The notes beneath the pieces were generated by a model. That model made no database searches and had not been told where the DNA came from. It was given only the letters and a program-made list of their open reading frames with translations. The position numbers and the translations under genes were made by a program. A stretch of DNA of 64,000 bases from Chiloscyllium plagiosum (taxonomy: Eukaryota). Below, piece after piece: positions 1,912-63,473 of this stretch (the stretch's first letter is position 1; every line of letters begins with the position of its first letter). The stretch is from contig NC_057755.1 in NCBI RefSeq assembly GCF_004010195.1, positions 8,745,685 through 8,809,684 on the forward strand. Reading direction: 5' to 3'.

Positions 1912-2410
1912 AACAGAAACCAGACGACCATGATGCTGTGAAACCAGGAGTAATGTAGTCCAACAGATAAGGACGAGAATTCTGTACTTGTCCAGCTGCC
2001 CCACTGCACATAATTATCTGTTCATTCAGCTTCAAAGACAAATGCAATAGAGAAATCCTTGACGATGATAAAATTAGAGAAACTTATTATGACTATCATA
2101 GCAATACTCTCTGTAATAATTTAATTTAACCTCTTGGTAGAATAGAGCTACAAATCTGTCGAATGTGAAGGTGACCGTGAATAAAACAGATAAGTCAGGG
2201 GCAACAGCGGTCAGGGACAGAATAATCCTGCACACAGGATTGAGCGACAAGAATGAAAGTGGAAAGTGATAATGACTGTGTAATACAATATTGCATTGAT
2301 GATCATGACCTGTAGATCGGCTGTTCCCATTGCCATCTTGTAGACAGAGATGCAGTTCGACAAGCCCCAGTTTCCCTCGAAGAGAATCATGATTGTCAAT
2401 GAGCCAGAAG
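1912..2410 (-). pseudogene. GPR139/GPR142-like GPCR pseudogene, exon 2 remnant (TM1 to start of TM5), cut by the CR1 insertion
   Basis: Frames give ILFEGNWGLSNCISVYKMAMGTADLQVMIINAIL, LSVLFTVTFTFDRFVA, then FEAE*TDNYVQWGS...YSWFHSIMVVWFL; frameshifts, stops and no clear acceptor; homologous to the 32886-33814 exon. Confidence 0.88.
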
Positions 2411-2816
2411 CAATAATTGACCTTATATTGCTGATTGCATTGCATTTGCACCTGCCTCTAATAGAGCATTTAATCAATATACAGGTTACCTTTTTTGTTG
2501 GAATGCAGAATTTTGAGAACAGCATTGTAAAGGAAACTGTTGTACAGGAATGCTTACCATAGTATAATCAGCTTCGTCAACATTCACACTGTACATGGCG
2601 ATAAGGCAATCGGGAGTTATGCAAAAGAACTTTCAAAACAAACATTTGCAACTCAGTAAAATAAACACATGAAGTTGCTTAAGACATTTGAGTCATTCAA
2701 GAGATTCTCCTTAGGATGAATGAATGTAACAATAGTAAAGAGGTTATTTACAAAACATGCAGTATGACAATGGATAGAGTTAACATCACACTAAAAGACA
2801 AAGTACAGTGATTCAT

Positions 2817-2886
2817 CAGGAACACCAGTAATGGCAAGAGTCGGGTAGTAAATCTGCTTTATCTGCAAAATAATATGTTGCTCCAT
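2817..2886 (-). pseudogene. Exon 1 of the GPCR pseudogene (MEQHIILQIKQIYYPTLAITGVP+G)
   Basis: 70-nt ATG-initiated segment with the same length, phase and IYYP.LA..G motif as exon 1 at 37376-37445; donor reads G|atgaat rather than G|gt. Confidence 0.85.
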
Positions 2887-3256
2887 TTTGCAAATAAAAT
2901 TACGAATTTATTATCAGTTGAAAGACTTCACAGAGTACACCGCAGAAGGAATGATGGAAAGCCAGTACTTATACACAAGTCAAATCTGCAGAGATTCATT
3001 TGAAATGCAGCCATTTATCAAACAATCTCAGCGACAATCCTTTCACCGGATAGTTCACATATAGAACATGCAGAAAAAATGTTTATTTAATAGCGATTTT
3101 TTTAAAAAACTGAAGGCAATCTCACTTAAACACTGTCAAAGTAATTGAAAGAGAATGTGCTCAATGTTTGGGCTGAACATCTCTCTGCAAAGCAGGCAAA
3201 GGAAGATACCTTGCACAATACACCATGACTCTGCCTTGGACTCAGTTTCCTATTAC

Positions 3257-3960
3257 TGTTATGAAGATGTGAGTGTAATATACGTTAAGAGAGTAAAAGC
3301 TAGCAGCGACAGTACCACATGTTTTTAGTAAGGCACACTGTAACATGTGCTCCAGCTCCTGGAGCAGCTGGTTTCCTAGAAATGACAAAACAGATTCGAA
3401 TTAGGCCAATCAGTTTAAGTTATACCCCATTTTCCTATCAAGTTTAAATTGAGAAAATTAAAACTCTTAAAAGCAAATGTCACAATCCGATATTTTGGGA
3501 GACAAGACCAGGGAAAATTGAAAGGTTAAGAGGAGAACTGCCACCATACTAACAAAAGTAGACTGCTCGTCAGAAACTACCGAGAGGTACTTGTTTAGAG
3601 AGGGAGTTTGCACAGAGAAACACCTCAACACTGAACTGGGGAGCAAATCTACCGACAAAGATAAAGAGAAGATTTGAGCGCTGTCTGGTTTTAAAATTTG
3701 AAATTTTCCTATAAAAAAACTTAATTCTGTGTTATATCGGACTGGTTTTAGAGAACAGAATCTCAAAGATAGGTTAGAAGAACACATTGTAAACAATTGT
3801 TAATTAATTATTCTCTGTTATACTTTAAAAAATAAAGTTTTTAATTTGTACTTTAATTAGTTCTTGGCCACTCGAATTTTTAAAGATTACTGCATGGGAT
3901 AAATGTTCCCTTTGTTGCTGGTTTTAAATTAAACAGGAGGGTTTACCCCGTTTCGTAACA
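3257..3960 (+). repeat. 5' LTR of the Gmr1-like element
   Basis: Starts tgttatgaag, ends cgtaaca; both ends match 9041-9316. Confidence 0.9.
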
Positions 3961-3963
3961 ATT

Positions 3964-3981
3964 TCGGGCCTCGTCTGGGAT
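3964..3981 (+). promoter_or_regulatory. Primer-binding site, tRNA-Pro type
   Basis: tcgggcctcgtctgggat vs TGGGGGCTCGTCCGGGAT (15/18), just after the 5' LTR. Confidence 0.8.
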
Positions 3982-6900
3982 ATGAACTGGTTGAGACAGA
4001 TTTGAATGGATGTGGGGTGCGAAAAATCGCAGAAGATCTTAACACTTGCAGGTTAGTGTCCTCGATCTTTAATTAAAATGTAGGTGAGGCATTTTTTTTT
4101 ACTTTCAGTGTCTTGTGGTTGATTACATTAAAATTGAGAGAAATAGCTCATAAAATTGCGAAATAGGTTCTGCGGTTTGATGATGATTCTCACATTTGCC
4201 AAGGAAGTTTAAAGGAAACAAAAAGGCCATATTTTTAGAATTAGCAAAGAAGTTCGACTTGGGTTTAATCAAGGACAAAAGTAAAGCTGAAATTGACACT
4301 TAGGTGTGTCAGAGAAACAGACAAATGCAGTAGAGGTTAAAAAAAAACTTAAATTGCAATTGAGGAAACTGGAGTTAGAAGATAAACAAAGCAAGACAGA
4401 GGAAAGAGAGAGGGAGAGATAAAATGAAAACGAGAGTGAAGAAAGAGAAAGAGAGAAGAGAAGGAGAGAGAAAGCGAGAAAGAGGAGAGAGAGAAACAAA
4501 GCAAAAGTACAGAGAGAAAAGGTTCTTAGCTGAGCAGACAGAGAGAAGAAGGAGAGAGAAAAAGAGACAGAAAAGAAAGGGAGAGAGGAAGAGAGAGAGA
4601 GAAGCAAGGGCTAGGCAAAAACTGAGAGAATTTTAAACTTGTGAAGTTGCATCTTAGTCTGCAAAATCACATTAACAGGATGAAAACTGAAAAAAGGTAG
4701 TGAAAAGTATAAGTACGTCAAAACTCTGCCAAATTTAAGGAGGAAGATGCTGAAGCCTTATTTATGTGTTTTGAAAAATTAGCGAGACAAATGGTCTGAG
4801 GATTTATGGGAAATACAAGTTCAGACTGAACTTGTAGGCAAAGCTAATGAGGTATTTGCCACACTGTCAGGTGAGGTGTCAAGAGATTCTGAAGAGGGTA
4901 AACAGGCTATTGTAAATAATTATGAATTTGTACAAGAAGCATAAAACAGCAGTTCAGAAACACAAAGAAGGAACAAGTTTCGACTTATGTTGAATTCAGA
5001 AAATTAAACATTGTCATTTTGATCGATGGGTGCGTAGAAAACCGATAGTACCTTTCAGGTTCGAAGAGAGATTATTCTGCTGGAGGAGATTTAAAAACTC
5101 ACTTCCAGAGATAGTAAGAATTCACATGGAGGAACAGAAAGTTCAGGAAGTTTGAAGAGCAGCAGAACTAGCAGATAAGTACATGTTGAATAAGACAAGG
5201 TTCTGGCCGGAATTTCACCCTGTGAGGGATAGAAGTTGGAAGAAATGGAGATCCTACTCTCCGAAGCCAGGAGTAGGGAGCACTGGAAAGATTTTACCCC
5301 AGGTTAAGAAGCCCAAGAGGGTGGGCAGGAGATGAATGACCTCAGGTGTTTTCACTGTAACAGAGTGGGACACAGATAATTGCAGTGACAGTGTTATCGG
5401 AAGGGCACTGGTAAAAGGTACTTTCAATTCAAGAATGTGGGACGCATAACATGACAGTACTGGTCACTAAAGACAGGCGCCGTGGGAAAAGGTGTGGTAA
5501 AAGAAGCTAAGCCAGTGGCATTAGTAAAAGTGGTAAAGGAGACCAAAGAAGAGTCGAGGAGCTGCATGAGAGAGCACAGCCGAGGTAGGTGCTGGGTTTG
5601 GAGTTAGTGTCTGATCTCGACAACGAATTCGCCTCTTTGGGTAAGGTTTACTCTGAAAGAACGGGGTCGGGGGGGGCGGGGGGGGGGCGGGGAGGACAAG
5701 AAGCTGCAATTTTGAGAGATAGAGAATCTAACCAGTCGCTGATAGTAAGAGAAGAGCGAATATGCACTCTTTCTGATCTGTTACAGAGAGTGTGATCATT
5801 TGTGTGATAGACGGACAGAAATTTAGAGGTCCCCTATGTATGTTCAGGATGGAGTGTCAACTTAAGACTGGGGAAGATGCAGTAGGAGTGATTGACAGAG
5901 CGTCACTTCCAGGAATTCAGTTTGTTCTTAGGAGTCATTTGGCATGATCAAGTTTGGAAGTGACACCCCATGTTGTGGATAAGCCCAAGGAAGACCAAGA
6001 AAGTGAAGGGTAAAAATAATTATCTTGGGTATTTTCCCAGATTGTGTGGTAACCACATCCTACTAGCAGAAATCACAGCACCAAGTGAAAAGTGAAGTCA
6101 ACGATGAAGGAGTTATGGTTCAGTTAGCACATAACCTGTTTGATGTAATGGTGCAGGAAACACCTGAACAGACAGAGCGTCAGAGAGATGTGTTTATTCC
6201 TGAAAGGCTAAGAGACTTGCAATAGCAAGCCAAGACGACAAACGATATACGTGGATTATACTCTGAAATGGAGGAGAGAATATTCTGCAGGGTTACTATC
6301 TGGAAGATAGAATCCCAAGGCGGAAATGGAGACCAGGCAGGTTACTGCAGAGGAGACATGGGCCGAATTGCGCCAGGTTGTGTTGCCGGAGGTGTTACTG
6401 TTAGCACTTGAACTGCCTGTCGGATGTCACCTAGTGGTATGAAAGACTCAGGCTAAGGTACAAAAACAAATACATGGCGAGGGATGCATAAGGATGTGGT
6501 AAACTTTTGTTGTATGTATCAAACGTGCCAAATGATAGAAGAGCCACAGGTGGGAATAAAGCCAACACTTTTGTTGTCAATTCCCACATTTCAAGAACTT
6601 TCCACGCTTTTGAGAATTGATTGTGTAGGTCCACTACCAAGAACTAAAAGGATGAACCAATACTTGTTAATCATGATGGATGTGCCTACCAGATTTCGGG
6701 AGGCAATTCCATGATGGAGTATCAAAGCAAAAAAGCATAATAGAGGAGTTAGTAACTTTCTTCACACAGTTTGGGCTATCCAGAGAGATTCAATCGGGCC
6801 AAGGTTCAAATTTTACTGAAGGCTGTATAAGGAGCTTATGGTTAGCTTAGGTATGCAGCACTTTAAATCAAATGTTTATCATCCTGAATCCCAGGGAGCT

Positions 6901-15210: not shown

Positions 15211-15214
15211 TATC

Positions 15215-26595: not shown

Positions 26596-26772
26596 ATCGT
26601 GTAAATTAAACTGATTGGCCTAATCCGATTCTGTTTTTTGTCCTGTCCAGGCAAGCAGCTACTCCAGTAGCTGGACCAAATGTTACATTGTGTCTTACTG
26701 AGAACACTTAGTGCTGTCACTGCTCACGTTTAACTCTGTTAAATGGTATCGTTGAGGCACGTCTTCATAACA
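26596..26772 (-). mobile_element. 5' ~175 bp of a Gmr1-like LTR embedded in the satellite
   Basis: Reverse complement tgttatgaagacgtg...ttaggccaatcagtttaa matches 3257-3425. Confidence 0.88.
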
Positions 26773-32885: not shown

Positions 32886-33814
32886 TCAAATTGAGGTCAA
32901 CCTGTATGCTGATTTGCACAGTTTAATAATTCGACCAAATGGATATCTTACGACATTGATTAACTCCTCCCTGAATTTAGTTTGTGTTAGAGCGTATATG
33001 CAGGTGTTGGTGCAGGAACACAGGAGCCGTAACATGAATCCAATTTCTTGAAAGACAAATGATGGATCATTCAATGTCTTGTCCTTATAATTATGGTTTA
33101 CTTCTCGCCGGATTAAAGCACGTACAATAAATGGTATCCACAACAGTATAAAGTTAGCAGACAATGCAAAGAGCAAGATGATAGATTTTCTCCGGTTTAC
33201 CATCTCTGGATCAGTATCGTTTTGTCCATTTCCGTGGATCTTGAGGCGACAGCGAATCTGGTTGGCTCTTATAATATCCCTGACAGTCAGAATATTGAAT
33301 ACCAAAATCAATACAATTGGAAGTAATGGTATCATTATAACATTAATCCAGACATAAACTTCCCAAAATACTGATGTATGATAGTCTGATTTTGTGATGC
33401 AAAACCATGGTACATTGTCGATAACAATTACAGGAGTAATAACAAAATACCAAATAATTGACCGCAAACAGCTGACCACACTCACAGTTACTATCACCAC
33501 TAATGCAGTTCTTGTATTACAATATCTTGCTCTTAGTTGCTGGCAACAAACTGCTACAAATCGATCAAATGTGAAAGCAACTGTGAACCAAACTGAGCAA
33601 CTCAGCGCTGCAGTATAGAAAACAGCTCTTAAGGCACACACAGGAGTAATGGATAAGAATGTAATTGGGAAATAAAGATTGTTAAATCTGTCCAGTAAGA
33701 CATTAAGGATGACGAGAAAGAGATCTGCTGTCGACATTGCCAACAAATAGCGAGTGATGCATTTTGAGAGTCCACAATTGCCTCGATGCAAGATCACAAT
33801 TCCCAATAAATTGA
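32886..33814 (-). CDS. Exon 2 of an apparently intact GPR139/GPR142-like class-A GPCR (TM1 to C-terminus)
   Basis: Open frame with seven-TM pattern: YLLAMSTADL, CALR, SVWFTVAFTFDRFVAVC, WFC, FILLWIP, CTNTCIY, FREEL; acceptor ctctttctttattttgcttacag|TC (phase 1); 929 nt. Confidence 0.92.
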
Positions 33815-34969
33815 CTGTAAGCAAAATAAAGAAAGAGGCATCTCATCATGACTGGAGTCACAGTAAAACATCAGCTTAATATATCTGCTAAATCACAGTA
33901 AATGCTGCAGTTTAATATATTAACTCAGTTGCATGATAAGAGATGAAAAGTTACAATGGAATCATTGACTCAAGTAAACCATCATGAAGTAAAAACATGT
34001 TGTGAACCAATAGACAAACATAATAAATGAATAAATAAGAGAAGAATAAACACTGCTATGAATAAAATAGTTTAAGACAAGTGTATTATGTTGACAGATT
34101 CACTGGAATGATCTATAGCTTTCTCCCACTGATTAAACGAGTAATGTACATACAAAATTAAAGTGGTAATAAGCAGAAGGTATTTTACTGCAATGGACAC
34201 AATCAGGAAGATTTCACATGAGCCACGACAATTTTTCTTTTCTGAAATGTATCGGGGATGGTTTACTGTGAGGTTGAGGTTGTTGGACTGGCCTGTCATT
34301 CAAATGGGGACGCAAACATTCTAATTTATGCTCAACTGCAAGGACTGTCAATCAGAGAAGGGAGAGGCAGGCGATGAGGAAGCATAGGAGAATGTGAGAA
34401 TCATTCTGGAACTTGGCAAATGTATACTTTGGCAGAACAGTGTTCCAGACAAGACCAAACCATCCTGAAAATATGTGAAGACGATAGCCTAGACCTTAGC
34501 TTTATAGTATTTTCAAGGGAGATTGCAGATATTGCATTTCAGATTCAATTTGATTGGCCAAGGTACCAGATTTGAAGCAGAATATTTTATTCATGTTCCA
34601 TAGTTAAATCACAGTAGAAGAATTGAGAATTTAAATAGACTTAACCCTGCTGGAAAACGTAACAGAACAATACATTATTTTATCAGTAAACAGTAACGGT
34701 TCTGATATGGTAACATTTCATAAACACACCCTTGGTTAAAAGTAAATCCATTAAACATACTGTCTCAATGCAACTCTGGAAGCAGGATGAAAACCCATTG
34801 CTTTTATCTGTAATCAAGAAAAGATGAAAAGCATGCTCCACAACTTCAAGACCCAGTAACTAATCCTACTGAAAATCTAAAAACCCTGGCTTTAGTGAAG
34901 TGAAACAGCAGCTATTGTCATCTCGGTGCTGGAACGCTCCAAATAGAAGTGAGAAATGGTGCTGATATG

Positions 34970-35296
34970 CAACACCTCCCTGGACGGTGTCCGGGTAGTT
35001 TTGATGTTGGCTCAGCAGTGGACAAGCAGGGAATGCCTGGTAACGTATTCTTCCTGGACAATGGCTGAATCAAAAAGCAATTACATTGAGGTAGAGAAGA
35101 AGGTTTTGGCGGTCTTCTTTGGCTGAGAAACTTTCAATAAATCATTTACAGACAAAAAATATTGAAAGGTAAAAGATCACAAACCCCTCGTCTGATTTCT
35201 AAAAGAAGATAAGACAGCGCCTCCCACATCTCCACGCAATCAACCAACCCCCTCCCCTTAATCCGGCTTCTAATCAAATTCAGCGGTGAGCCCTTA
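34970..35296 (+). mobile_element. Gypsy RNase H remnant in the GPCR intron
   Basis: SRTMAESKSNYIEVEKKVLAVFFG...DHKPL...QIQR remnants. Confidence 0.65.
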
Positions 35297-35297
35297 C

Positions 35298-35843
35298 TGT
35301 TGTTGTGGTTCTGTTCACCGAGCTGGGAATTTGTGTTGCAGACGTTTCTTTCCCGGTCGAGGAGACATCCTCAGTGTTTCAGAGCCTCCTGTGAAGCGCT
35401 TCTGTGATCTTTCCTCCGGCATTTGAATCTGCTTCTTTCGGTTATCAGTTCCAGCTGTCAGTTGCAGTGGTCGGTATATTGGGTCCAGATCTATGTGCTT
35501 ATTGATTGAATCTGTGGATGAGTGCCATGCCTCTAGTAATTACCTGGCTGTTCTCTGTTTGGCTTGTCCTATAATAGTAGTGTTGTCCCTGTCGAATTCA
35601 TGTTGCTTGTCATCTGTGTGTGTGGCTACTAAGGATAGCTGGTCGTGTCGTTTCATGGCGAGTTGATGTTCATGGATGCAGATCGTTAGCTGTCTTCCTG
35701 TTTGTCCTATGTAGTGTTTTGTACAGTCCTTGCATGGGATTTTGTACACTACATTGGTTTTGCTCCTTCGTTCTGGTGAGTTGTTGTCTGAGAGTGGCTG
35801 TTGGTTTATGTGCTGTTATGAGTCCTAGTGGTCGCAGTAGTCT
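35298..35843 (-). mobile_element. Penelope-like element 3' fragment (GIY-YIG endonuclease and 3' UTR)
   Basis: YKIPCKDCTKHYIGQTGRQL...HEHQLA...LEAWHS. Confidence 0.9.
35337..35377 (-). ncRNA. Degenerate minimal hammerhead-ribozyme-like motif of the Penelope element
   Basis: Minus strand aca-CTGAGGA-tgtctcctcgaccgggaaa-GAAAC-GTC-tgca. Confidence 0.55.
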
Positions 35844-35959
35844 ACAACTGCTGCCGGGATTGGGAAATGTTTGGATAATTAATACCCCCACCCCATTATT
35901 GTCACATTTCTGTGTTTACACATGTGCAAACACCGCACAAAATAAGAGGTAGAGATCGA

Positions 35960-36290
35960 GTTAATGGTAGCTCTATTTTCCTGAGGATAGGGAATTCAAG
36001 ACCAGTGTTTAACTTTTTAAGGTGAGAGGAGAGAGATTTGAAATAACATGAGGGGCAAGTTTATTACACACATTGTGGTTTGCATTTGGAATGGTCCTCT
36101 TGAGGAAGTGGTCGATGCAGGTACAATTACAATGTTTAAAAGACAATTAAATTGTTATATGGATAGGAGCGTTTTGAAGGAATATGGGCCAGGAGCAGGT
36201 TAGTGGGGCTAGTTTAGTTTGGGATTATGTTCGGAATGAACTGGTTGTAACGAAGCATCTGTTTCCGTGCTGTATGATTCTATCACTGTA
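35960..36290 (+). mobile_element. CR1 3'-end fragment
   Basis: aaggtgagaggagagagattt...ctgtttccgtgctgtatgattcta. Confidence 0.75.
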
Positions 36291-37375
36291 TTTAATTTCA
36301 CGCCACGCAAAACAAAGTTGGAATGAAAATACAAACAAGTGCTGCAAAACTAATCAGATTGAATCCCCTTCATAGGCAGTGCCAGATAATTAAAAGCATC
36401 GACATGATTTCTGAATCAACCTCTTCAGAGATGTCAGGCCACACCTTTAGAGCTGGTAGGACATGAATCTGGGACTCCTTTGTACACAGATAGAAATTTA
36501 TAGCATCAATACACTATCATTAATTTCCATTCATACAGACAAAGAAGGTCACCAATTTGAGTGAGACACTAGAGTCACACCAGGCTTCTTTCTTCCTCTC
36601 CACAAAAACTGCCAAATATTTCGAGTTTATCCATCATTTTCTTGCGAATATTCTAAGATGTATTCACCCACTTGATTACCGCCAAATCCACAAACTTTCA
36701 GTCTGTCCCCCGGGCACTATCGCTCAGTAACAGCAGGATGTACCATCTACAAGACACATTGCAGCAGCTCCCGAGTTTCCTCAGACATCCCCCTCTGACT
36801 TCGCAGCCGCTACTGTCCAAAAGCAGAAGAGAGATGGGAATGACACCACTTGCAAGTTTCCTTCAAGCCTTCCTGGCTTGGAAACGCATCACGTTCCTTC
36901 ATCGTTGCTGTATCGGCTGAAAGACATTTGGACAGCTCCATGGAGAGGATGGGTGGAAGGGGATATGGGTCCAACACAGGGAAACCTGACTAGTTCAGTT
37001 TTTGAAACCTGATCAGAATGGATGAGGTCGACCGCAGGGTCTGTTTCCGTGCTCTATGACTCTCTTTGGGTCGTCAAACACCAAATGGTCTGCAGTGGTT
37101 TGTGAAGGCAGTTCACCTCGACCTTCGGAAGTGTAACTCGGGATGGGGAAGAAATTCTGACTCAGCCTGCTCTGTATTGCAACTAAATTCTAAATAAGAC
37201 ATTCATAAATAAAGCAGCTTCAGCAGACAGAAGGAAACAACAATAAAACTGTACTACTACTCAAATCACGAGGAACACGTAGACTGGAAGTAAACAAAGC
37301 CAAGGAATCTAGTTCAAATTTGAATAACGAATGAGGGAGTGAAGTTAAATACGATTCATACAAACAAGGACTTAC

Positions 37376-37445
37376 CAATAATGCCAACCGCTGCAAGTAT
37401 CGGGTAGTAAATGCATGCTGTAATTAAGATTGCTGAGAATTCCAT
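37376..37445 (-). CDS. Exon 1 of the same GPCR (MEFSAILITACIYYPILAAVGII+G); spliced protein 332 aa, intron 33815-37375
   Basis: gggacATGG start; G|gtaagt donor; 70+929=999 nt in frame, giving YYPILAAVGIIVNLLGIVIL, similar to TM1 of GPR139 ([20 protein letters not shown], from recall). Confidence 0.88.
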
Positions 37446-38344: not shown

Positions 38345-41300
38345 CGAACTGGAATGTGGGTAGTGTCATGACTAACTTCCTTGATTGGAGCTGTTAACCT
38401 TGTCCAATCAGGTATCTCTGGATGTCTGATATTATCAATAGTTTTGGGGGATCTGTTCACTCTCGGAGCTGGTTCTGAGCTAGTTGGATCCATGTCATGA
38501 ACTATGCCCGTCTAAATAAAGGGGATTTGGTAACGGGAAGTCAGCCTTTGTGTACTTATTTCATTGGCGGCGAGAGTAAAATTAATGATGTCAGCATACA
38601 AAAGCGCCGATGAACCGAAGCTCAACTTGATGTGAATAAAGCATTTCAATTGGCATTGTCACCAGGAAATGCAGCAGCTGGACTTCATGAGTTACAGTGT
38701 AGGGCGATGGAAGTTGGCACTTTCACCAGGCTGACTGAGCTTCAATGATACCATGTGAGTGAAGTCAATTACACTGCCTCACTCTGGACCCTGAACATAG
38801 AACTGCCCAGCAAAAGAACGGCCCATTCGTCCCACAAAGTTTTTCTGAACTTGACACTGGACTTAACTGATCTTTTTTGCCTGCCATTGGTCCATATCCC
38901 TGCACACACTACGTATCCAAAACTAACCAGAGTTTTTCTAACTTCTCCTTATAGCTCATGCAATCTAATGCAGGCAGCATCCTAGTAAAACTCTTTTGCA
39001 CCCCTTCCAAAGCTTCCACACATTTTCTGTAAAGTGGCAATCTGAACTGAACACAGTACTCTCAGTGTGGCCTCACGAAAGGTTTATAAAGTTGTAACAA
39101 TTTATTGAAAGTGTATGAGATCATGATCGGCATTGACAGGGTGAATGCACCCAGTCTTTTTCCCAGTTTTATATGAAATTAGCTGCCAGTCAAAGTGGTT
39201 GCGGTGGGTACATTAATGACATTTATAAGGTATTTGAGCAAATACATGTGTCGGAAAGGATTCGAAGGACGTGGACCAAGAGCAGGGAAATGGGATTAGT
39301 GTGAATGGACATTTTCGTGGGCATGGATCAGTTTGGACTGGAGGGTCTATCTCCATGCTCCGTGATTCAATGACCCCAACAATCTATACCATAATATTCT
39401 GACCCTTGTACTCAATTCCCTGACCATTTAAGGCAAGCACGCCATACACCTTCTTCACCACCATATCTACTTGCATGACCACTTTCAGTGAGACATGGAT
39501 TTGAAACTCAAGATGCCTTTGTACATCAATGCTCTGCAGGCTCCAGCCATTACCTGATACGTTTCATTAATGTGTATTCTTCTAAAGTGCAATACCTCAC
39601 ACTTACCCGTATTAAGCTCCATCTGCCATTTCGATGTCCATATCTGCAACTGATCTATATCCCGCTCTATCGTTCTACACTAACTACAACTCCACTGATC
39701 GTTGTATGATCTGCAAACTTACTAAACCGCCCCATCCACATTTTTCAACCAAGTCATTTATATCTAGTACAAACAGCAGAACTCCCAGTTTAAATCTCTG
39801 CGGAACACCACAAGTAACGGACCTCCAACTTGCAAAGCACCCTTTCTCCACTCACCTCTGCCTTTTATGGGAAAGGGTTTAAATAACCCCAATCCAAGAC
39901 TGGCATCTCCACTTCTAAGGGAAAGCCAATCCTGAATCCACACGGCCAAATCACTGTGTATCCTACGCATGTTAATCTTCAGGATGAACTTTCCATGAGG
40001 GACAGCCCCCAAAGCCTGACTAAATTCCAATTCTCTCCCCTCATCGCTCAGCATATACTGAGCAGATGGCCTCCGCATCAGCTGACACCAAAACCCCAAA
40101 ACAAAGACAAGCATCATTCAAGCTGTTATCATTTTCTTCAGGACCGGGATGCCAACTTGTGACAGTGACAGATTCCCACTAGGCCTGACGTCAGTAAGAG
40201 AACTGATAGGCCGCTTTCCAGGAGAGTGCACACCCTGGAAAGCCCACCTCCAGCTTGCTCGGAACAGTTTCATTTCTGAGCAACATTTAAATCAGAACTG
40301 ATCAAAACAAACGTCTATTTAAATGATTACCTGGTTCTAATGGCAGTAGATACCATTACAGATGTATCAATGATTGGAAAACCAATATTTAACAAAATTC
40401 ACTCGGTATTTCAACTCTTAAGTAAGGCATCGGCCTACGCTGGGAACCTATCGTGGGGAACCTTGACCGATTAAGTCGAAAACTTCAGTTTCGATCTCGT
40501 ATGAGAAGTATCTGGTTCAGTTTCCACTGATCGAGCTAAAAGGCTTGGGTCCAACGCTGATGGGGAATATGGGCTGAGAAAGATTCACTTTGATTGGTTC
40601 CGCATTTTTCAGTGAGAAAATAGCTGCTTGAGTGAAGTCCGAATGAAATACCAAGAGGTTTTTCAGGAAAGTCTCCGGGTGCCCAAAGGAGCCAAAGCCG
40701 CCTTGCATGTTTACTGGGAAGTAATTCCTCGATTCTGCAAGGCCTGCCCAGGGCCATTTGCCTTATACAGAAAGGTAGAGGCAGAAATCAGGAGGCTGGA
40801 AAGGGAACAAGTCATCAAATCAGTACAGTTTGCAGATTAGGCAGTATTTGCTATACTGATTATTCGACCCCAATGGATCGATTTGACATTTTGGGATTTT
40901 AATCTGGTAGTACACAGATTCTCACAGTTAGAAAAATACCGAACCCCTCAATGTAGAGGGCAGAAGTTTATTAAGGGGCACATGAGTGATTGTCCCAATC
41001 AAAGGTAAACCCTGTAAACGGTTAATCGTGGAATACAAAGGTCATTTCATGGGTCAATGTTTTTTGTTATTGTGGATGGTCATTCAAAGCGGTTGGACAT
41101 GGAATTTGTCAAACTCAGGGATGATGATTATGAAGGTGTGAGCATTATTCACAACACACGGACTCTGGACTTATTGGTTGTGGACAATGGGATGTCATTT
41201 TCGAGCAGGGTTTTCCAGTATTTCCTGACGTCGAATGGCATTTATCACATTCAGACAGCTCCATAACATCCATCATCCCATGATCTGGCGCAAAGAACTG

Positions 41301-42120
41301 TTCAAATTTTGAAGGCAGGCTTAAAGAAGCAGCCAATAGATTCACTCGATACCAAACTCTCCCGGGTCATGTTTGATTATAAGACCACTCCTCTCATAAC
41401 AACAGGGATAACTGCAACAGAGTTGCTGATGGGAAGAAGACTCCACACCAGGTTAAACCTGATATTCCCAGACCTGGAGGGATGGTGCAATATCATCAGG
41501 AATACCAATAACAGCCACGTGACTTCTCTCAGGGGGAGAGACAGTTTACTTCAGAGGATGAAGTTAGGTGTCGAAACCACAGAAATAGCCGTGCACAGGC
41601 ACGCGATGAGGTCAGTGTGAGATCAGGTCCTTTGACTTACAGAGTTTGGTTAAGTGAGTCGGTCCTGAACAAACATGTCGATTACATGAAAACTGCTCCC
41701 TTGCAAACGGGGCAAGAGCAAATCATAAGTGTCCCCTCAGAACAGCCAGAAAGGCTATCAGAAACAGTGGGTTCTCCATCTCTGTCTCGCGTTGAATTAA
41801 ACTCCGAATGGGAGATGTCTGCAGCCTCGATATCGTTACCACCTGAAGAAGAGGAGGAAACTCTCCCGAGGTGCTGCGGGTGCAAATAACTATTTACAGT
41901 CCAGAAAACATCGCCCGTGTACAAGGCAGAGTAGGAAGAACCAGATCTGTGGTGAAAACATCCCAGGAGAAGCTACAACAGAAAGAGCAGGCTTACATTC
42001 CCAGAACTGGCGTGCGAGTTGTTTCGTCAATGGAACGAGGGTCAGGCAGATCACATTGACTATGAGCGCCCCGATTCTTCTTAACCTGAGCCAATCAGGG
42101 AGCACTGGCTGACAGAGATA
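38345..42120 (+). mobile_element. Decayed, internally deleted Mag-type Gypsy element A with nested CR1 pieces
   Basis: LTR ending ttatttca then PBS-like tggcggcgag (~38565); protease MAVDT (~40345), RT N-terminus PRFCKACPGPFAL, integrase VDGHSK..DNG..TAP.HPSS..RTVQ (41030-41480); partial 3' LTR to ~42120. Confidence 0.8.
38790..40025. mobile_element. Nested CR1 fragments in both orientations
   Basis: CR1 3' UTR and RT remnants (ALGAVPHGK, LAVWIQDWL). Confidence 0.7.
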
Positions 42121-42997: not shown

Positions 42998-43064
42998 TGT
43001 CCACCCCTATCCAACACCGGCATCTTCAAGTCAATATGGAAATAGTTTATTACATAGCCAGCGG

Positions 43065-43295: not shown

Positions 43296-43879
43296 CTGCT
43301 CCATGGAAGGAAATTCAGGAAATGTGAAAGTGCTCAAATGATAGAACTGATGAAAAATAAAGATCATTCTCACAGACTCTGTTATCCTGATTGTCCACCT
43401 TGACAAGATAATTTGTATTTGATAAAATGATGATGGTAAACTACAGAAATGGAGTTTATCTCTATCCCAGGAGAAAAAGAAAAATACATTTAAGTCAATC
43501 CTGTACAAAACAATGTTGGAATAAAAATCAAAACAAGCACTGCAAAACTAGATCTGAATGACTTCCCTTCAAACACAGTGCCAGATATTTAAAAGCATCG
43601 ATATCTTTTCAAATGCAACCTGTTCAGAGATGTCATGACACAATTCTGGAGCAGGTGGAGCTTGGACTTGGGCCTCTCTGGTCCACAGGTCGGGATGAGT
43701 GCCATCAATACAACAGATTTAAATGTCGCTTGGAATATACTGGAGAGCCAGTGTAACTCACTTGGTTGAAATGGCAACAGTCAGATTGTAGACTTACATA
43801 TTAATTAGTCGCAGACATCATGCTGTGATGTCTCACGCACTCATCAGCTTAATGCAATCATTGGTAGATTTTGTACTCC

Positions 43880-44390
43880 TTACCTAATATATCATGAGCA
43901 GTTTTGGGCCCTGTGTCGAAGGAAGGATATTTAGAACCTGAAGGAGGTTCAGAAGATATTCATAAGAATGATCCTGGGGATGGAGGGTCTGTCATATGAG
44001 AATCGGTTGAGGACACCGTGAGTTTTTAAATATGAACGTGAATCTGATTGAAACTTTCTGAATATTGAGAGATTTGGATCGAGTGGATATGAAGAAGATG
44101 CTTCTTCTCATAGGACACATTCAAGTCTAATGGCACAACCTCAGGGTGAAGGGATGTCCCTTTAGAACTCAGACGAGACGAATTTCTTCAGCCAGAGGAT
44201 GGTGGAATTAATGGAAGTCATTGCCACACAAAGGCTATGGAGACCAAATCACTGAGTATTTGAAGAAAAAGTTAGTTTTCTTTATAAATTAGGGAATCAA
44301 GGGTTACAGGGAGAAGGCTGGAAAATGGGATTAAGGAACATGTCGGCCGAATCGCCTAATTCTCCTCCTATGTCTTATCTTTTTCTGATC
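43880..44390 (+). mobile_element. CR1 3' fragment
   Basis: gagcagttttgggccc...cctaattctcctcctatgtctta; similar to 18530-19125. Confidence 0.75.
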
Positions 44391-45251
44391 TTATGGACAA
44401 GTAGTGAATAGCATTTGATCCACACAAGTTTCAGGCAACTACTATCTTTAACAAAAGAGATTCTAATCATCGCCCTTTGATTTTCAATGACATTGTCATC
44501 ACAGCATCCACTGCTATTCATACCCTGGGGATTACCATTGAACTAAAACAGCCCTGCCTTAGCCATATAAGTATTGTAACGACAAGAGCAGAGCTGAGGC
44601 TTGGAATCCTGCTGCGAAAATATCACCCACTGACTACCCAAAGCTTATCTCATCATCTACAAAGCACACGTCAGGAGTAAGAGGGAATACACCTACTTGT
44701 CTGGATCGGTGCAGCTCCAAAAACACTCAAGAAGCTCAACACTATTCAGGACCATGGAAAATTCTGAAGAAGACTCAAACCAGATTCGAAAACTTAACTT
44801 AAGTTTTTCTCTACAAAGAAACTGCCAGATCTGCCGAGCCTATCTCATTTTACTTTGCTTAAAGCAGATATCAGCATCTGCAGTAGTTTGCATTTAGTCC
44901 AGCATATATCAGCCTATTTGTTTTCCATCACATCCATAAACTTTCAGTCTGTGTCCTCCCACTGCCGCTCAGTGAAAGCAGGTTGTACCATCTAAAAGAC
45001 ATATTGCAACAGCTCACCAAGTTTACTCAGACAGCTCCCTCTCAGTCACACAGCCACAACTGTCTAGAATCAGCAGATGGATGGGAGTGCCATCACTTGC
45101 AAGTTTCGTTCAATCCACTCACGTTCCTGGAATGGAAAAAAAACATCACCATTCCTTCAGTGTTGCTGGATAAGTTGAAAGACATTTGGACAGCTCCATG
45201 CATCGGAAAGTTTCAGTGGGATATGGATTCAATGCAAGGAAATGTAACTCG

Positions 45252-47460
45252 AACATAGAACATTACAGCACAGTACAGGCCCTTCGGTCCTCGATGTTGC
45301 GCCGATCAGTCATAACAATCTGAAGCCCATCTAATCTACACTATTCCATGTGCGTTCATATATTTGTCCAATTACGACGTAAATGCACTTAGAGTTGGCG
45401 AATATACGACCGTTGCAGTCAAAGCATCCTATACCCTGACTCCTCTCTGAGTAAAGAAATCATCTCTGACATCTGTCCTATATCTATCATTCCTCAATTT
45501 AAAGCTATGCTCGGAGTCAACATACTTGGAAAATGTCTCTCCCTGTCCACCCTATATAACCCTCTGATTATCTTATATGTCTCTATCAAGTCACCTCTCA
45601 ACCTTCTTCTCTCCAACGAAAACAGCCTCAAGTCCCTCAGCCTTTCCTCGTAAGACCTCTGCTCCATACCAGGCAACATCCGAGTAAATCTCCTCTGCAC
45701 CCTTTTCAAAGCGTCCACATCCTTCTTATAATATGGTGACCAGAACTGGACATAATACTCCAAGAGCGGCCGCACCCGAGTTTTATACAGCTGTAGCATA
45801 GAACATAGAAGATAGAAGAATCCAGCGCAGTACAGGCCCTTTGGACCTCGATGTTGCGCCAATCCAAGCTCACCTAACCTACACTAGCCCACTATCCTCC
45901 ATATGCCTATCCAATGCCCGTTTAAATAGGACATAAAGAGGGAGAGTCCACCACTGCTACTGGCAGGGCATTCCATGAACTCACGACTCGCTGAGTAAGG
46001 AATCTACCCCTAACATCTATCCTTTACCTACCACCCCTTAATTTAAAGCTGACTCCATATGTGGAAAAAGGTTCTCATGGTCAACCCTATCGAAACCCCT
46101 AATCATCTTGTACACCTCTATCAAGTCACCCCTAAACCTTCTTTTCTCCAATGAAAACAGCCCCAAGTGCCTCAGCCTTTCCTCATACGATCTTCCTACC
46201 ATACCAGGCAACATCCTGGTAAACCTCCTCTGCACCCGTTACAGTGCCTCCACATCCTTCCTATAGCATGGCGACTCCCAAAGTGAATCACCTCACATTT
46301 AGCTACATTGAATTCCATTTGCCACCTTTCTGCAGCTTCTCTATATCCTGCTGTAACCTGCTACATGCTTCCTCACTGTCAACAACTCCTCCGCCTTTCG
46401 TATCATCCGCAAACTTGCTCACCCAACCTTCTAACCCCTCTTCCAGGTCATTTATAAAAATGACAAACAGCAATGGTCCCAAAACAGATCCTTGCGGAAC
46501 ACCGCTAGTAACTGCACTCCAAGATGAACCTTTACCATCAACTACTACCCCCTGTCTTCTTCCAGCCAGCCAATTCCTAATCCAAACCTCCAACTCACAC
46601 TCAATGCCATACCTCCGTATTTTTTGCAGTAGCCTACCATGGGGAACCTTATCAAACGCCTTACTAAAATCCATATACACCATATCTACCGCTTTACCCT
46701 CGTCTACCTCCTTAGTCACCTCCTCAAAGAATTCAATAAGGTTTGTGAGACACGATCTGTTCTTCACAAAACCATGCTGACTATCCTTAATCACATTATC
46801 CTTATCCAGATGTTCATAAATCCTCATGGTTCCGGAACTCAATCCCTCTATTAATAAAAGCTAAAACACTGAATGCCTTCTTAACAAGACTATCAACCTG
46901 GGAGGCAACTTTCAAGGATCTGTGTACCGACATCGAGATCTCTCTGCTCATTGACACTGCCAAGAATCTTTGCATTTGCCCGGTACTATGCATTCCGGTT
47001 CGTCCGACCAAAGTGAATCACCTCACACTTTTCCGCATTAAACTCCATTTGCCACCCCTCAGCCCATATATACAGTTTATCTATTTCTCTCTGTAACCTA
47101 CAACATCCTTCGTCACTGTCCACGACGCCAGCGACCGTAGTGTCGTCTGCAAATTTACTAACCCACCCTTCTACGCCCTCATCCAGGTAATTTTAAAAGA
47201 ATGACCAACAGCAGTGACCCAACACCGACCCTTGCAATACACCACTAGTAACTGGACTCCAGGATGAACATTTCCCATCAACCAACACCCTCTGTCTTCT
47301 TTCAGCAAGCCAATTACTGATCCAAAGTGCTATATCTCCCACAATCCCATTCCTCTGCATTTTGTACAATAGCCTATTGTGGGGAATCTTATCGAATGCT
47401 TAGATGAAATCCATATACACACATCAACCGGTTTACTCTCATCTACCTGTTTGGTCACCA
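45252..47460 (-). mobile_element. Stack of nested CR1 ORF2/3'-end fragments
   Basis: Tails at ~45255 and ~45800; ORFs 45494-45862, 46038-46235, 46303-46842 (FADDTK), 46814-47011. Confidence 0.92.
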
Positions 47461-47894
47461 GCGTCTACTGAATTGTAACTCTGGATGCGGAATAAATGCT
47501 GACTCAGCCTGTTCTCTATTGGAACTAAATTATCTGTAAAACATTTATAAATAAACCTGCTTCAGCAGACGGGTGGAAACAACAATGAAATGAATCATTC
47601 AACAAACCACGAGGAACACGAAGTTTTGAAGCAACCAAAGCCAGGGAACTATGTCAAATTTCAATAGGTAATGATGGAGTTAAGTTAAATCGGTTGTACA
47701 TAAACATAAAAATCAAAAGAAATTTGGATGTGGTAAATCAGAACCAAAAACACAAGTCGCTGGAAAAATTCTGAGGCAGAGTAACCAGATCCGAGACGTT
47801 AACTCTGATTTCTCTTCCCAAAAGCTGACGGACCTGATGCTCTTTCCCAGAACATTCTGTTTTTGTGTACACAAACATATCTGGATTTAAGGGC

Positions 47895-47964
47895 CAATAC
47901 TACCAACAGCTGTAAGTGTCGAGTAGAAAGTATGTACTAACTGTAAGATGGCTGAGTATTTCAT
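47895..47964 (-). pseudogene. Orphan paralogous GPCR exon 1 (MKYSAILQLVHTFYSTLTAVGSI+G) with non-consensus donor
   Basis: 70 nt, homologous to 37376-37445 within homologous flanks; donor G|gccctt; no exon 2 seen between 42100 and 47800. Confidence 0.8.
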
Positions 47965-48737
47965 TATGTCCCAATTAGATCTGTCAGTTCCTATGGAGTC
48001 AATGATTCTGTCCGTGGAAAACAATAATGTTGCCAAAACAGCCTAAATTTATTTAGAAGTTAAATTACCAGTGAGACAGTAAATCTGGTTGAATCGCTAG
48101 TTATATTAGCTGCAGTAATCTGAACAAACAGCAAAGTACTTACTTTCCTCTGAAAGTTATTCCGTAGTGGAATGTATTTTGAAGAAGAAAATGCCACTAA
48201 TTTCTTGAGAATTCGATTTCGGTTTCACTGTCATGTGTACGGAAGTGCAGAGGTACATGAGTACAGTGAAAAGTGAACACTGTCAACGTTCCTAGATCCA
48301 TCTCACAGACAATGGCATCTTGGTTCAAAACCTTAGGTAAAAAGGGGAAACATGAAATTAAAAGTTAAAACTGAAAAACGTGTTTTGAAATATTTTCGAA
48401 AGACAGAGCAAGGCACTCCAGTTTGCAATAAAGCTATTCTGTATTAGACTCAGATGCACATTTCCTTCATTATTGCCTTTTACATTAACCAAACACTCAG
48501 TTTTCAACTGAGTGGAAGTATCACGCCCATGGCTAATCAGTCCCTTTCCTTTTGGATACTAAAAAGGGGTTCTGCATTTCTGAGAGGAGGTTCAATTCAG
48601 CGTTACCTTCAGGAATGTGGAACTCGTAAGGGATTAGAATACTGGGATGTGGGTAGTGTAGTGATTGAGTTCCCTGACTGGGGCTGTTAACTTGGCCCAA
48701 TCAGGCAGCCCTTGCTGACAGATACAAACAGGAGATT

Positions 48738-55678: not shown

Positions 55679-56552
55679 ACAAATAGGAGGGCCAGGGGTT
55701 CTGTTCACTCCGAGAACTGGCTCTAAGGATACCAGACCAGTGGCAGGTACTTTACACATGTAAGTAAAGGGTGATAATGTAGCGACCTCTGTGAAGGTAC
55801 ATCATGGGAGACGAGCCTGAGATAAATGATGTATCCAGGCAAACGCACCTACTAGATAAAATGTCGTTGTAGTTCGAAATGCATCAAGTGGAACATGTCA
55901 TCTATATGGAATGCCGATGGAAGCACACACTCTCATCAGACCAACTGGGCTTCGGGGATAGCACTTGAGTGAAAGCAATTGCATCACCTCAGGACATACC
56001 CTGAACAGATGGACTCCCGGTCAGCTCACAACAAAAAACCGCAAAGCAAAGTCCAATCTCGGCCAAACTGTTAACATTTTCTTCAGGATCAGAACCAGAA
56101 AGCCATTGTCCTTGCTGCCAGGATGCGAATTTGTGACAGTGACAAACTCCCACTAGATCTGAAGTGAATAAAAGAATTGCTAGACCGGAATCCAGGAGTG
56201 TGCACATCGTGGAAAGCACACCTACAGCTGGCATGGAACAATTACATTGCTCAGCAACATCCAAATCAGAACTAATCAAAATAAACGTCGAGTTAAATGT
56301 TCACCTGGTTGCAATGGAAGTAGATACCAGCACAGCTGTATCAGTGGTTGCAGATCTAATCTTGAACAAAGTTCGCTCAGGACTCCAACTCTTAAGATTG
56401 TATAAGAGCTCAGCTAAACTAGATTAAGGGGACAACTTCGATTCTGGTCTCATATGAGAAGCAGCTGGTTCATTTTCCAATTGATTCACTTTCCAATTGA
56501 TTCACTTTGATTGGCTCAACATTTTTACAATAAGAAAATCGTTCCTTTTGCT

Positions 56553-59959: not shown

Positions 59960-61481
59960 TTGGCTGTTCTAAATGCAATACCAGATACCAGACTTTCGGG
60001 TGACCTACTCCCTAATCACTACATTCCTGTCTAGCACAGTCATACACAGGGCTGACATAAAATAGTATATGGGCTCACAGCTTTCTATCCTTCCTGTAGC
60101 ATTTGTATCCTAGAACATTAAGCTGCCCATCCCTGAGCCATGTTTCTGTAATTGTTACGATATCCCAGTCCCATGTTCCTAAACATGCCCTGAGTTCATC
60201 TGCCTTTCCTGTTCGGCCTCTTGCATTGAAATAAATGCAGTTTAATTTATAAGTCCTACCTTGTCCCTGCCTGCCTGAATGTTTGACTCACTTCTGTTCT
60301 CAGCTGTACCCACCTCAGATCGATCTCTTTCCTCACTATCTGCCTGATTCCCTCCCTCCCCCCCCCCCCCAACCTTCCTAGTTTAAATCCTCCCAAGCAG
60401 TTCCAGCAAATTTCCTTGCCAGTATATTATTCCACTTCCAATTTAGGTGCAATCCGTCCTTCTTGGAGAGGTCACTTCTACCCCAAAATAGATCCCACTG
60501 ATCCAAAAAGGTGAATCCTTCTACCATATACCAGCCCCTCAGCCATGCACTCATCTACTCTATCTTTATGTTCCTGCCCTCACTAGCTCTTTTCACTGGG
60601 AGTAATCTACATATTACTACCCTTGAGGACCTCCTTTTTAAATTTCTGCCTAACTCTCTGTAATCTCCCTTCAGAATCTCAAACTTTTCCCTTCCTATGT
60701 CGTTGGTTCCAATGTGAACAATGGCCTTCTGCTGGCCCCTCTCCTCGGTGAGAACATTCTGCACCCTCTCTGAGACATCCTTGATTCAGGCACCAGGGAA
60801 ACAGCACACCATTCTGCTTTTTCTCGGCTGGCCACAGAAAGGTCTGTCTGTACCTCGGACTACAGAATCCCCTAACACAATTGATCTCTTGGAAACTGAC
60901 GTAACCCTCGTTGCATTAGAGCCAGTATCAATAGCTGAAACTTGGCTGTCCGTGCTAGTGAGGGCAGGAACATAAAGATAGAGCAGATGAGTGCATAGCT
61001 GTTTGAAATGGGTATAACCACAAGAGTCTCCTGCACTAGCTGCCTACCTCTCTTACCATTCGTGGAGTTAACCCATCTATGTGACTGCATCTGAGACTCC
61101 CCCCCCCCCCCCCCCTCTTTCTATAACTGCCATCCATCACATACTGTAGCTGTTGCAAATTCGTCATCGCTTCTATCTGTCTCTCCAACCGATCCACTCG
61201 ATCGGATAAGCTATGGCTGATATTTTAAGTTTAATCAGGAGATTTATCTCCAAAAACATTTAATCACGAAAGAATCCACTGTACCCAATCCTGCACCCCT
61301 GGACAGACTTAAATCAACAATTAACTTATCTCATTCTGTGCTGTGAACTTCGCCCAACAGTTCCTCCAAGATTAGTTGTGAATTTCACTGTTTGTTAATT
61401 TTCCCAGATGGACTCCGAGGTCCAGCGATACACGAATTCAAACAGCAAAGGTGTAACTGTGCAGGTTCATTCGTTCGTTCG

Positions 61482-61521
<40 letters not shown>

Positions 61522-61745
61522 CACTGTCCTCACCATGTGCTCCCTTTGTCTGCTCTTCTCCCTTTTAAAACTGCTGCTGTTTCGACTTCTTTTTATCAAA
61601 GTTCCAAACATTGCAACAGCATATAAAACAGTAATTGCTGCTCCTGGAATTCGAGGAAGTCATCTCCAACACCTAAAATACCTCAAAAAAAGGAGCAGCT
61701 CTTATAGCCAAACATTTTTCCCATCCTCCGTCTTGGATTACCCAG
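59960..61745 (-). mobile_element. CR1 5' portion: 5' UTR, ORF1 with SGNH esterase domain, start of ORF2 endonuclease; 3'-truncated
   Basis: IVHIGTNDIG (GxND) at 60555-60764; LHLFQCKR-like/GKADELRA...TETWL APE start remnant at ~60100-60240. Confidence 0.85.
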
Positions 61746-62565
61746 ATCCCATCCTGTTGTAACAATCAAGCGAGTTGCTTTATCCTGGATGGTGTCAAGA
61801 ATGTTATTTATAATTAATGCGAGTGCTAAATATTTATTTCACAGTTAATCTTGGTGCTGAGTCTCAATATTCAGTGAACTGCTTAGATATGTTGACGTGC
61901 GTGATCATCCACTGGGCATTGTAACTAATGTGACCAGAAATAAACAGGGGAAAGTAACAAGAGTCACAGCTGTGGACAGGAACTAAAGCTTAAGCTGGCA
62001 TTTCATAACAGCTTATACAAAACAAAATGCAAGGCACACCCAAAGAATGAGGTTCAGGAATGTTGAAATTGCAGCAGTTTCGATGATGGAAAAGACCTTT
62101 GAATATTACATATTCTCATCCAAATTGCAATAAATCCCAGCAAAATCAAATTTCCGAATGATAGCAGTTTGGAAGATAATAAGTTTAATCTTTGCATTCC
62201 GTGGTAGCCAGACATTGAACATATTCACATGAGGTGGCCACTGACCTTTTAGCACTAGAACGTAAACTTATTGACGACAAAAAACAACAAAGATTTAAAT
62301 GCAATAGAATCTGAAAAAAATCTTTATATGGAACAGAAAAGCAGCCTCAATATTTTGAACAGCAATACCCTTGAAAAATACCCAATCTCAGTGAAATATT
62401 ATTCGAAATACATTTTTTTAACAGAAGTGGTTATTTCAAATTTTCATGTTCTAGAGGCTTCTTTCCAATTCTGAGGACATTGACTTCTTTTCGGTTGATG
62501 CAGACAGGGAAATGCCACAAGTTCTTTAAAAATGGAGATCATGTTCTAATGCTGGAACTATATCT

Positions 62566-63473
62566 GCAAATTGAGGTCAGATGTGTATCTTTGTTTGCAC
62601 AGTTTAATAATTCTAGAAAATGGAAATTTTACTCCATTGATTAACTCGTCTGAATTTAATTTGTGTTAGAGTGTATATGCAAGTGCCGGTGCACAAATTC
62701 GCATGAATCCAATTTCTTGAAGAACAAATATTGGATTATTGAACGTATTGTCTTGAAAATTATAGATTATCACTTGCCAGTTGGAAGAGTGTACGATATA
62801 TGTCACCCACAACAGTTTAAAGTTAGCAGACAATGCAAAGACCAAGATGGTTTATTATCTCCGGATTACCACCTCTGGACAAGTATTATTCTGTCCATTT
62901 CCGTGAATCTAGAGGCGACAGTGGATGCGGATAGCTGTTCGAAAATTCCTGACAGTCAGGGCATTGAATACCAAATCAATATAGCTGGAATCAATTGTGC
63001 AATTACGCTGTCAAGCCATTCATGCACATTCCAGAATAATGATGTTTCATAGTCTGATATTATGATGCAAAACCACAGTACACTGTCAAAACAGTTGAAT
63101 ACAAAATGCCAAGTAATTGACCGCAAACACCAGGCCACACACACAGTTACCATCACCACAAATTCAATAGTCATGTTGCGATATCTTGCTCTTCGCTTTT
63201 GGCAAAAAATTGCTGCAAATCAAGCAAACCTGAAAGCAACTGTGGACCAAACTGAACACTCCATGACGGCAAGGAATATGACAACTTTCAAGGCACACAC
63301 AGGAGCGATGAGTAAGAAATTAATAGGGAAATAAAGATTGCTAATTCGGTGCAGTAAGACATTAATGATGGCAAGAAATAGATCTGCTGCAGACATTACC
63401 AACGAATAGCGAGTGGCGTATTTGGACAGCCCGCAATTGCCTCGATACAGGATCACAATTCCTATGACATTAA
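62566..63473 (-). pseudogene. GPR139/GPR142-like GPCR pseudogene, exon 2; exon 1 presumably beyond the window
   Basis: Close paralog of 32886-33814 with homologous flanks; intact acceptor tttacag|TT; TGA within the DRF codons (63220-63222), frameshift in TM5, original stop changed to TGC. Confidence 0.92.

Follow-up and report, generated by a model that had tools for sequence, protein, structure and literature searches.

GPR139 and GPR142 are class A orphan receptors that respond to L-Trp and L-Phe. The orthologues of GPR139 are 70-96% identical from human to zebrafish (PMC7318219), and the receptor has been linked to the MIP, proctolin, and FMRFamide receptors (PMC12208981). Its site for tryptophan and phenylalanine is made up of F3.33, H5.42, W6.48, R6.51, and N7.39 (PMC5430874, PMC7318219), and islets and enteroendocrine cells use GPR142 to sense aromatic amino acids (PMC6323244). 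In bony fishes, the 2019 survey of Rinne et al. (PMC6504862) describes three "GPR210" subtypes beside these two receptors, with no mention of sharks. Here we analyse a 64,000-nucleotide (nt) stretch of contig NC_057755.1 of Chiloscyllium plagiosum, hereafter the window, which carries four copies of a G protein-coupled receptor (GPCR) gene related to this group. It is likely that these copies are a local part of a large family of chondrichthyan class A GPCRs, which has diversified as a ligand-diverse birth-and-death repertoire.

Comparable systems are known. The vertebrate chemoreceptors (OR, TAAR, ORA/V1R, V2R, and T2R) resemble the genes described here in their tandem clusters, their pseudogenes, their compact gene structure, and a variable pocket set on a conserved core. 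In Lymnaea stagnalis, about 450 FMRFamide-receptor-like genes lie in tandem clusters among repeats (PMC11589774). These invertebrate expansions and those of Srw receptors, clusters of which occur among the Atlas neighbours of the family, belong to the same wider receptor group and share its arrangement of tandem copies among repeats, but the chondrichthyan expansion would be an independent one in a vertebrate lineage.

A chondrichthyan family near GPR139

The window is repeat-rich, and its sole long frame outside repeats is a class A GPCR exon (33842-32886, minus strand). The intact gene to which it belongs is 999 nt long when spliced and encodes 332 residues. Its product is predicted to be a class A (rhodopsin-like) GPCR: Pfam reports 7tm_1 at an E value of 3.7e-17 and no other match at E<0.01, exon 2 is modelled with confidence as a helical bundle (mean pLDDT 92), for which Foldseek returns class A receptors at a TM-score of about 0.7, and D2.50, D/R3.49-3.50, P5.50, W6.48, N7.49, Y7.53, and the cysteine pair formed by C3.25 and the second extracellular loop (ECL2) are all present. 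The spliced protein has the short N-terminus without an N-glycosylation sequon and the DRF and NTCIY motifs that the initial annotation had described, although the proline missing from NPxxY is nothing special, as human GPR139 also lacks it. The third inner loop holds the lone sequon, at residue 222. The predicted N-terminus agrees with those of annotated relatives such as P0002, and 64 of the best 120 protein matches described next share its 24-residue lead up to the asparagine of the first transmembrane helix (TM1), with a sequon there in none of the 64. Membership in the OR, TAAR, V1R, V2R, T1R, or T2R families was rejected, with 7tm_1 the only Pfam match and none of these receptors among the best 60 solved matches.

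When the protein of exon 2 was used as a query, 1643 proteins were found at E≤1e-5. Among the best 120 of these, 118 are named and all come from chondrichthyans (sharks, rays, and a chimaera, 21 species in total), while 2 are unnamed; the nearest relative among the matches listed, from Chiloscyllium punctatum, is 83% identical. Nearly all named rows are labelled automatically as "probable G-protein coupled receptor 139". After clustering at 90%, a hand count within the best 120 gave at least 28 clusters each for Heterodontus francisci and Heptranchias perlo, a floor, as the remaining 1523 of the 1643 matches were outside the count. These values may be set against the catshark, which has 2+6 OR-type, 3 ORA, 3 TAAR, 2 TARL, and 32 V2R genes (PMC11979771). 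An exhaustive search of 50%-identity cluster representatives yielded 111 at E≤1e-30, some of which are fragments or mispredicted fusions, and nine of ten divergent representatives that were looked up are chondrichthyan, the tenth being unnamed. Four database entries (P0009, P0013, P0019, and P0121) exceed the length of a single receptor and contain two matches to the query. These are probably gene models that fuse neighbouring tandem copies, and protein counts for the family are therefore rough. The tandem birth-and-death cluster and the lineage-expanded family that had first been proposed from the window are both supported.

The closest solved receptor to the family profile is human GPR139 (E 7e-33), followed by the neurotensin receptor (1.8e-24). 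With the intact sequence alone, GPR119 and GPR139 tie near 2-3e-6, and in Foldseek GPR139 ranks ninth among near-equal scores, so that the fold does not separate it from other peptide receptors. Like GPR139, the gene has two coding exons, by exon count (PMC7318219), and its product shares N5.58 and W6.48 besides the TM7 motif without proline. It differs in that GPR139 has D3.25 where this family has C3.25 and the ECL2 cysteine, and in that GPR139 is one copy where this family has many in tandem. An identity of 20-22% to GPR139, where at least 70% would be needed, together with a tryptophan/phenylalanine pocket that does not match, led us to reject the window gene as a GPR139 orthologue. The assignment as GPR139/142-like thus stands in its wider sense: sequence comparison places the gene outside GPR139 and GPR142 themselves and within the wider GPR139/GPR142 group.

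Three related paralogue groups were recovered in bony vertebrates. A search with a salamander member of one of them, the P0231 group, returned 25 proteins in all: 20 amphibian clusters, each from a different species, 1 sturgeon protein, and 4 chondrichthyan proteins. As this search was word-based it can miss distant copies, and the amphibian/sturgeon gene is apparently single-copy. The expansion and the amphibian/sturgeon gene group together with a support of 96 in a quick tree (65 rows) and 99/100 in a careful tree (33 rows picked from the fetched set); the chondrichthyan rows alone form one clade with weaker support (78/64). The trees place the amphibian/sturgeon gene as the closest bony-vertebrate relative of the expansion and its sister group. 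The two share the short N-terminus and the motif that precedes TM6, but in the P0231 group each amphibian species found has a single cluster, and the pocket hardly varies. Position 2.50 of the P0231 group holds N in place of D in 20 of 20 amphibian rows. A second group has conserved shark members of its own (P0306, P0348, and P0359), few of which are among the best 120 matches. The number of bony-vertebrate groups equals that of the GPR210 subtypes, and it is plausible that the P0231 group is one of these, the supplement of PMC6504862 being without sequences or identifiers to match.

Two Callorhinchus proteins fall in separate subclades of the careful tree with shark or ray partners (97/77 and 96/94). 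Several copies therefore existed before the split of sharks and chimaeras, and the expansion is older than this split. No description of it was found in the accessible literature, in which most matches were judged by title and abstract and subscription papers were not covered, and GPR139/GPR142 were not found in the supplements of PMC11406177 (2 files), PMC8455134 (12 of 24), PMC10529500 (1), and PMC7677710 (3). The passages searched in PMC11886862 held nothing of relevance. The receptor family is large and ancient; its genes are already annotated, and its clade and expansion apparently undescribed.

Pocket variation and candidate ligands

Conservation was scored in 133 chondrichthyan rows, which are the 120 best matches and 13 more distant ones and are weighted toward the kin of the query. 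D2.50 is found in 133, R3.50 in 132, C3.25 in 131, and Y7.53 in 132; these residues, the ECL2 cysteine, N5.58, and N7.49 are each kept in 98-100% of rows, and the class A signalling set including the C3.25-ECL2 pair in 127-133 of 133. Positions 3.28, 3.32, and 3.33 have an entropy of over 3 bits. In 60 shark paralogues the entropy is 1.71 bits in the pocket, 1.56 at other outer positions, and 0.67 in the inner half, making the pocket 2.5 times as variable as the inner half (p 3e-7). The corresponding values are 0.05, 0.44, and 0.38 bits in 20 amphibian orthologues, and 0.74, 1.02, and 0.73 in the second group, which looks single-copy and is similarly divergent (118 rows, transmembrane identity 0.70 vs. 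0.64), so that the pocket is no more variable than the core in either control group. A chemoreceptor-like pattern of pocket variability, which goes beyond the initial annotation, is present in this family and absent from both controls. In sequence, the surviving receptors retain a core that faces the G protein and vary the outer pocket; coupling to G proteins is suggested by the conserved core, and different members most likely detect different ligands through one common signalling pathway.

The residues of the GPR139 tryptophan/phenylalanine site were mapped onto the family through the GPR139 profile alignment. The window's receptor has T, N, W, F, and F at these positions, keeping only W6.48 of the five, whereas the amphibian gene has F, Q, W, K, and N in 20 of 20 rows. 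Among the shark paralogues, 3.33 is mostly I/Y/V/L, 6.51 is mostly Y/F, and 7.39 is F in 70 and N in 17 of the 133 rows. With these residues scrambled in sharks, the aromatic amino acid ligand that had been put forward is not supported. The rows instead hold D3.37 in 106, E5.39 in 74, D5.42 in 88, and Y6.51 in 93 cases. The common acidic residues at 3.37, 5.39, and 5.42 and the loss of a basic residue at 6.51 make amines or basic peptides a better first guess than tryptophan or phenylalanine, and the ligands, many of them perhaps cationic, might be of these kinds. The D5.42 of the family recalls the Asp5.42 through which teleost TAARs bind amines (PMC4695389), as a positional lead only.

The same positions bear on the idea that the copies are internal sensors of nutrients, metabolites, or peptides in gut, endocrine organs, brain, or gonad, extending the role of GPR139/GPR142, for example as tissue-specialised copies of an ancestral tryptophan/phenylalanine-type sensor. 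GPR139 as the best solved match, the role of GPR142 in islets and enteroendocrine cells, and the amphibian sister gene, which keeps F3.33, W6.48, and N7.39 and has K6.51 throughout, all fit this idea. The scrambling of positions 3.33, 6.51, and 7.39 in the shark paralogues speaks against it, and an internal ligand would not readily need dozens of differing pockets. We regard internal sensing as improbable, and prefer a ligand-diverse repertoire in which an ancestral GPR139-like sensor, kept single in amphibians, would have multiplied in chondrichthyans.

The gene cluster in the window

All four receptor-gene copies lie on the minus strand (Table 1), in agreement with the four co-oriented members first noted in this DNA. 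One is intact and three are broken: an exon 2 ridden with stops and frameshifts, an orphan first exon, and a decayed and truncated copy. A family profile made from chondrichthyan relatives was run on the window, with the reversed window as a control. It matches the intact gene at 33833-32892 with 502 bits, the pseudogene at 63498-62558 with 177 and 102 bits in two frames, and the decayed copy at 2414-1929 with 33, 50, and 11 bits in three pieces; the top score on the reversed window is 2.1 bits. First exons apart, this profile finds no additional copy above 3 bits in the window. A first-exon profile scores 24.0 bits at 37445, 20.7 at 2886, and 4.3 at 47964, against a background of at most 1.2 bits in the rest of the window and on its reverse, and the weak score at 47964 is backed by 76% DNA identity between the orphan exon with its upstream region and the intact gene over 388 nt. 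All three first exons measure 70 nt from the ATG, as first described, but their common phase-1 structure goes only so far, as a GT follows in the intact gene alone (GC in the orphan, AT in the copy at 2886). Flanking DNA common to three of the units in the DNA comparison indicates that the cluster arose by tandem duplication of a two-exon unit. With one of four copies intact, birth and death are visible directly in the window, and copies have been lost through point mutation, deletion, and retroelement insertion.

Table 1. Receptor-gene features in the window (positions counted from its first letter)
Feature	Position	Strand	Description
Intact coding exon 1	37376..37445	minus	70 nt (23 codons and 1 nt) with GT donor; encodes the short N-terminus and TM1 up to its middle
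Intact intron	33815..37375	minus	single, phase 1, 3561 nt, GT..AG; high-copy repeat near 35244-35979
Intact coding exon 2	32886..33814	minus	end of TM1 to C-terminus; class A GPCR, DRF and NTCIY
Pseudogene exon 2	62558..63473	minus	78% DNA identity to intact exon 2
Orphan first exon (fourth copy)	47895..47964	minus	donor GC, then insertion
Orphan unit remains	43506..48623	minus	upstream region and intron pieces, broken up by fragments of long interspersed nuclear elements (LINEs)
Shared flank	40058..41832	minus	71-73% identity to DNA 3' of pseudogene (58290-56001); marks 3' side of orphan unit
Decayed copy first exon	2817..2886	minus	70 nt, open; donor AT, not GT
Decayed copy exon 2 remnant	1929..2414	minus	TM1 to about TM5, frameshifted; ends where a LINE fragment begins
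TATA-like box	about 37520-37535, 48040-48055, 2960-2975	minus	includes the distant 2886 copy

The pseudogene has four in-frame stops, at positions equivalent to residues 108, 215, 233, and 234 of the intact receptor, one of which removes the DRF arginine, as well as deletions of 1 nt near 62975, 10 nt near 62701, and 2 nt near 62650. The end of its intron (63974-63474) is 70% like that of the intact gene, and its exon 1 would fall past the end of the window. Between the orphan exon and the intact gene there is no exon 2. The upstream region of the orphan (48623-47894) is 68% like 38160-37375 over 803 nt, and its intron pieces (47690-47470, 45242-44918, and 43712-43506) are 75-80% like the intact intron. 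Together with the 3' flank, these remains suggest that the whole unit was duplicated and that its exon 2 was then lost, presumably by deletion. A single exon 2 used in common by alternative first exons was considered and rejected, as the orphan is without a GT donor and has intron and flank remains of its own. The decayed copy lies beside a reverse transcriptase match at 475-1002. It is 44% identical to the intact gene over 54 residues and 54-56% identical to some other family members, which is distant, as its earlier placement in a different subfamily implied, but the copy is too decayed to be placed.

Other features of the window concern its non-coding DNA. An AT-rich TATA-like box with similar flanks stands about 75-85 nt 5' of the ATG in all three first exons (three sequences only). 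No array of a 26-bp unit was detected at a score of 30 in 37400-41000, 47900-50100, or 2880-8000. A 196-nt piece just 3' of the stop of the intact gene is duplicated (32143-31948 vs. 32795-32600, 92% identity). Satellite arrays of a degenerate 33-bp unit lie between the intact gene and the decayed copy (17022-18250 and 24149-30977), with about 34, 63, 45, 23, and 35 copies and traces of a 263-bp higher order. A GC-richer block at 50078-55683 consists of about 2.5-3 copies, 82-85% identical, of a unit of about 1.93 kb that itself contains 101-bp repeats; Pfam matches none of three short frames in the block. Retroelement remains are found at 475-1002, 7994-8749, 22358-22936, and 46306-46860, and comprise reverse transcriptase of LINE type, reverse transcriptase/RNase H of long terminal repeat (LTR) type, and a weak SCAN-domain match. 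In two DNA-like runs the summed depth over the TM3-TM4 bin is 1023 against about 10, and 2740 against a single-copy level of about 20-28; this excess of about 100-fold is a hint only and is no copy number.

Several observations weigh against a ligand-diverse repertoire under selection. Only one of the four copies in the window is intact, and one contig of DNA run X3 (depth 12.6) has a 1-nt deletion at position 37402 in the intact coding exon 1, which is possibly a segregating null allele or else a near-identical copy. When the intact exon is compared with the pseudogene over 293 codons, the ratio of nonsynonymous to synonymous substitution rates (dN/dS) is 0.76, a value that shows no strong constraint, though one of the branches is dead. 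In the shark paralogues, variability at the pocket does not exceed that at the other outer-half positions (1.71 vs. 1.56 bits, p 0.62), and part of the signal is therefore explained by relaxed constraint on the outer half as a whole. Furthermore, the 23 positions that we take to be the pocket are a generic class A list and were not read off the model, and GPR139 and GPR142 are absent from the trees.

The dead copies, the dN/dS value, the possible frameshift allele, and the abundance of LINE, LTR, and satellite DNA would all be expected if the cluster reflected mostly neutral drift of copy number in a duplication-prone repeat region, with open frames persisting since elasmobranch genomes change slowly. 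However, even at 37-60% identity the paralogues have complete frames and a core that hardly changes, and neutral decay would not spare the inner half; nor does drift sit well with subclades that chimaera, sharks, and rays have in common. Drift is thus the least probable of the explanations considered here, and the ligand-diverse repertoire remains the one we favour.

Possible sites of action and significance

Where such a repertoire acts can be suggested only tentatively. Our first choice, at somewhat less than even confidence, is chemosensory cells of the nose, taste system, or skin, or solitary ones. In a single-cell run labelled with the same species (X5, about 2/100 of the run, tissue unknown), 301 reads fell on 32300-37800, nearly all on the intronic repeat; exon 1 had zero depth, one bin of exon 2 reached 0.18, and none of the joints displayed linked the two exons. 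A second run (X6, tissue unknown) had no reads on this region, and the two runs speak neither for nor against expression.

Alternatively, the family may be an immune or irritant repertoire on leukocytes, mast-like cells, or skin sensory neurons, responding to microbial or damage-derived peptides and metabolites in the manner of MRGPRs or formyl peptide receptors. MRGPRs are clustered and have short N-termini and basic ligands. Such a role shares its repertoire logic with the explanation we favour and differs from it in site, and the clustering and pocket variability would be the same under both. Cartilaginous fishes reportedly lack MAS1 and its relatives, which leaves the role of these receptors open (PMC8455134), and some catshark OR genes are specific to the spleen and not the nose (PMC11979771), so the receptor family does not fix the tissue. 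Membership in the MRGPR/MAS1 family itself was rejected, as the family profile has 367 solved matches and no MRGPR occurs in the best 60, and any likeness to MRGPRs would be convergent. One supplementary file of a nurse shark spleen paper contained no family member, which is a weak test. On balance an immune or irritant site seems unlikely, though less so than internal sensing.

A chemosensory site for the repertoire could be carried further, to a more doubtful proposal that we hold slightly less firmly than the site itself. The genes might form a further chondrichthyan chemoreceptor family of independent origin, perhaps the largest, with tens to more than 100 GPR139-related receptors per genome, descended from an aromatic-amino-acid or peptide sensor that is still single in amphibians, with sparse expression in olfactory or other chemosensory cells and with amines or basic peptides as ligands.

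Cartilaginous fishes are described as having a relative paucity of GPCRs in the whale shark paper (PMC8455134), and the olfactory repertoires of the catshark as very small apart from about 32 V2Rs (PMC11979771). With 28 or more distinct members apiece in two shark species, hidden by the label "probable GPR139", the family changes the GPCR count whatever its function. If the chemosensory proposal is true, surveys that covered only OR, TAAR, V1R, V2R, and taste receptors have missed a chemoreceptor family. The family makes it possible to test, with existing tissue RNA data, how sharks manage chemical sensing with so few receptors. The amphibian sister gene is an unnamed, conserved orphan receptor worth deorphanising, and offers a single-copy reference for how an internal sensor may turn into a repertoire.

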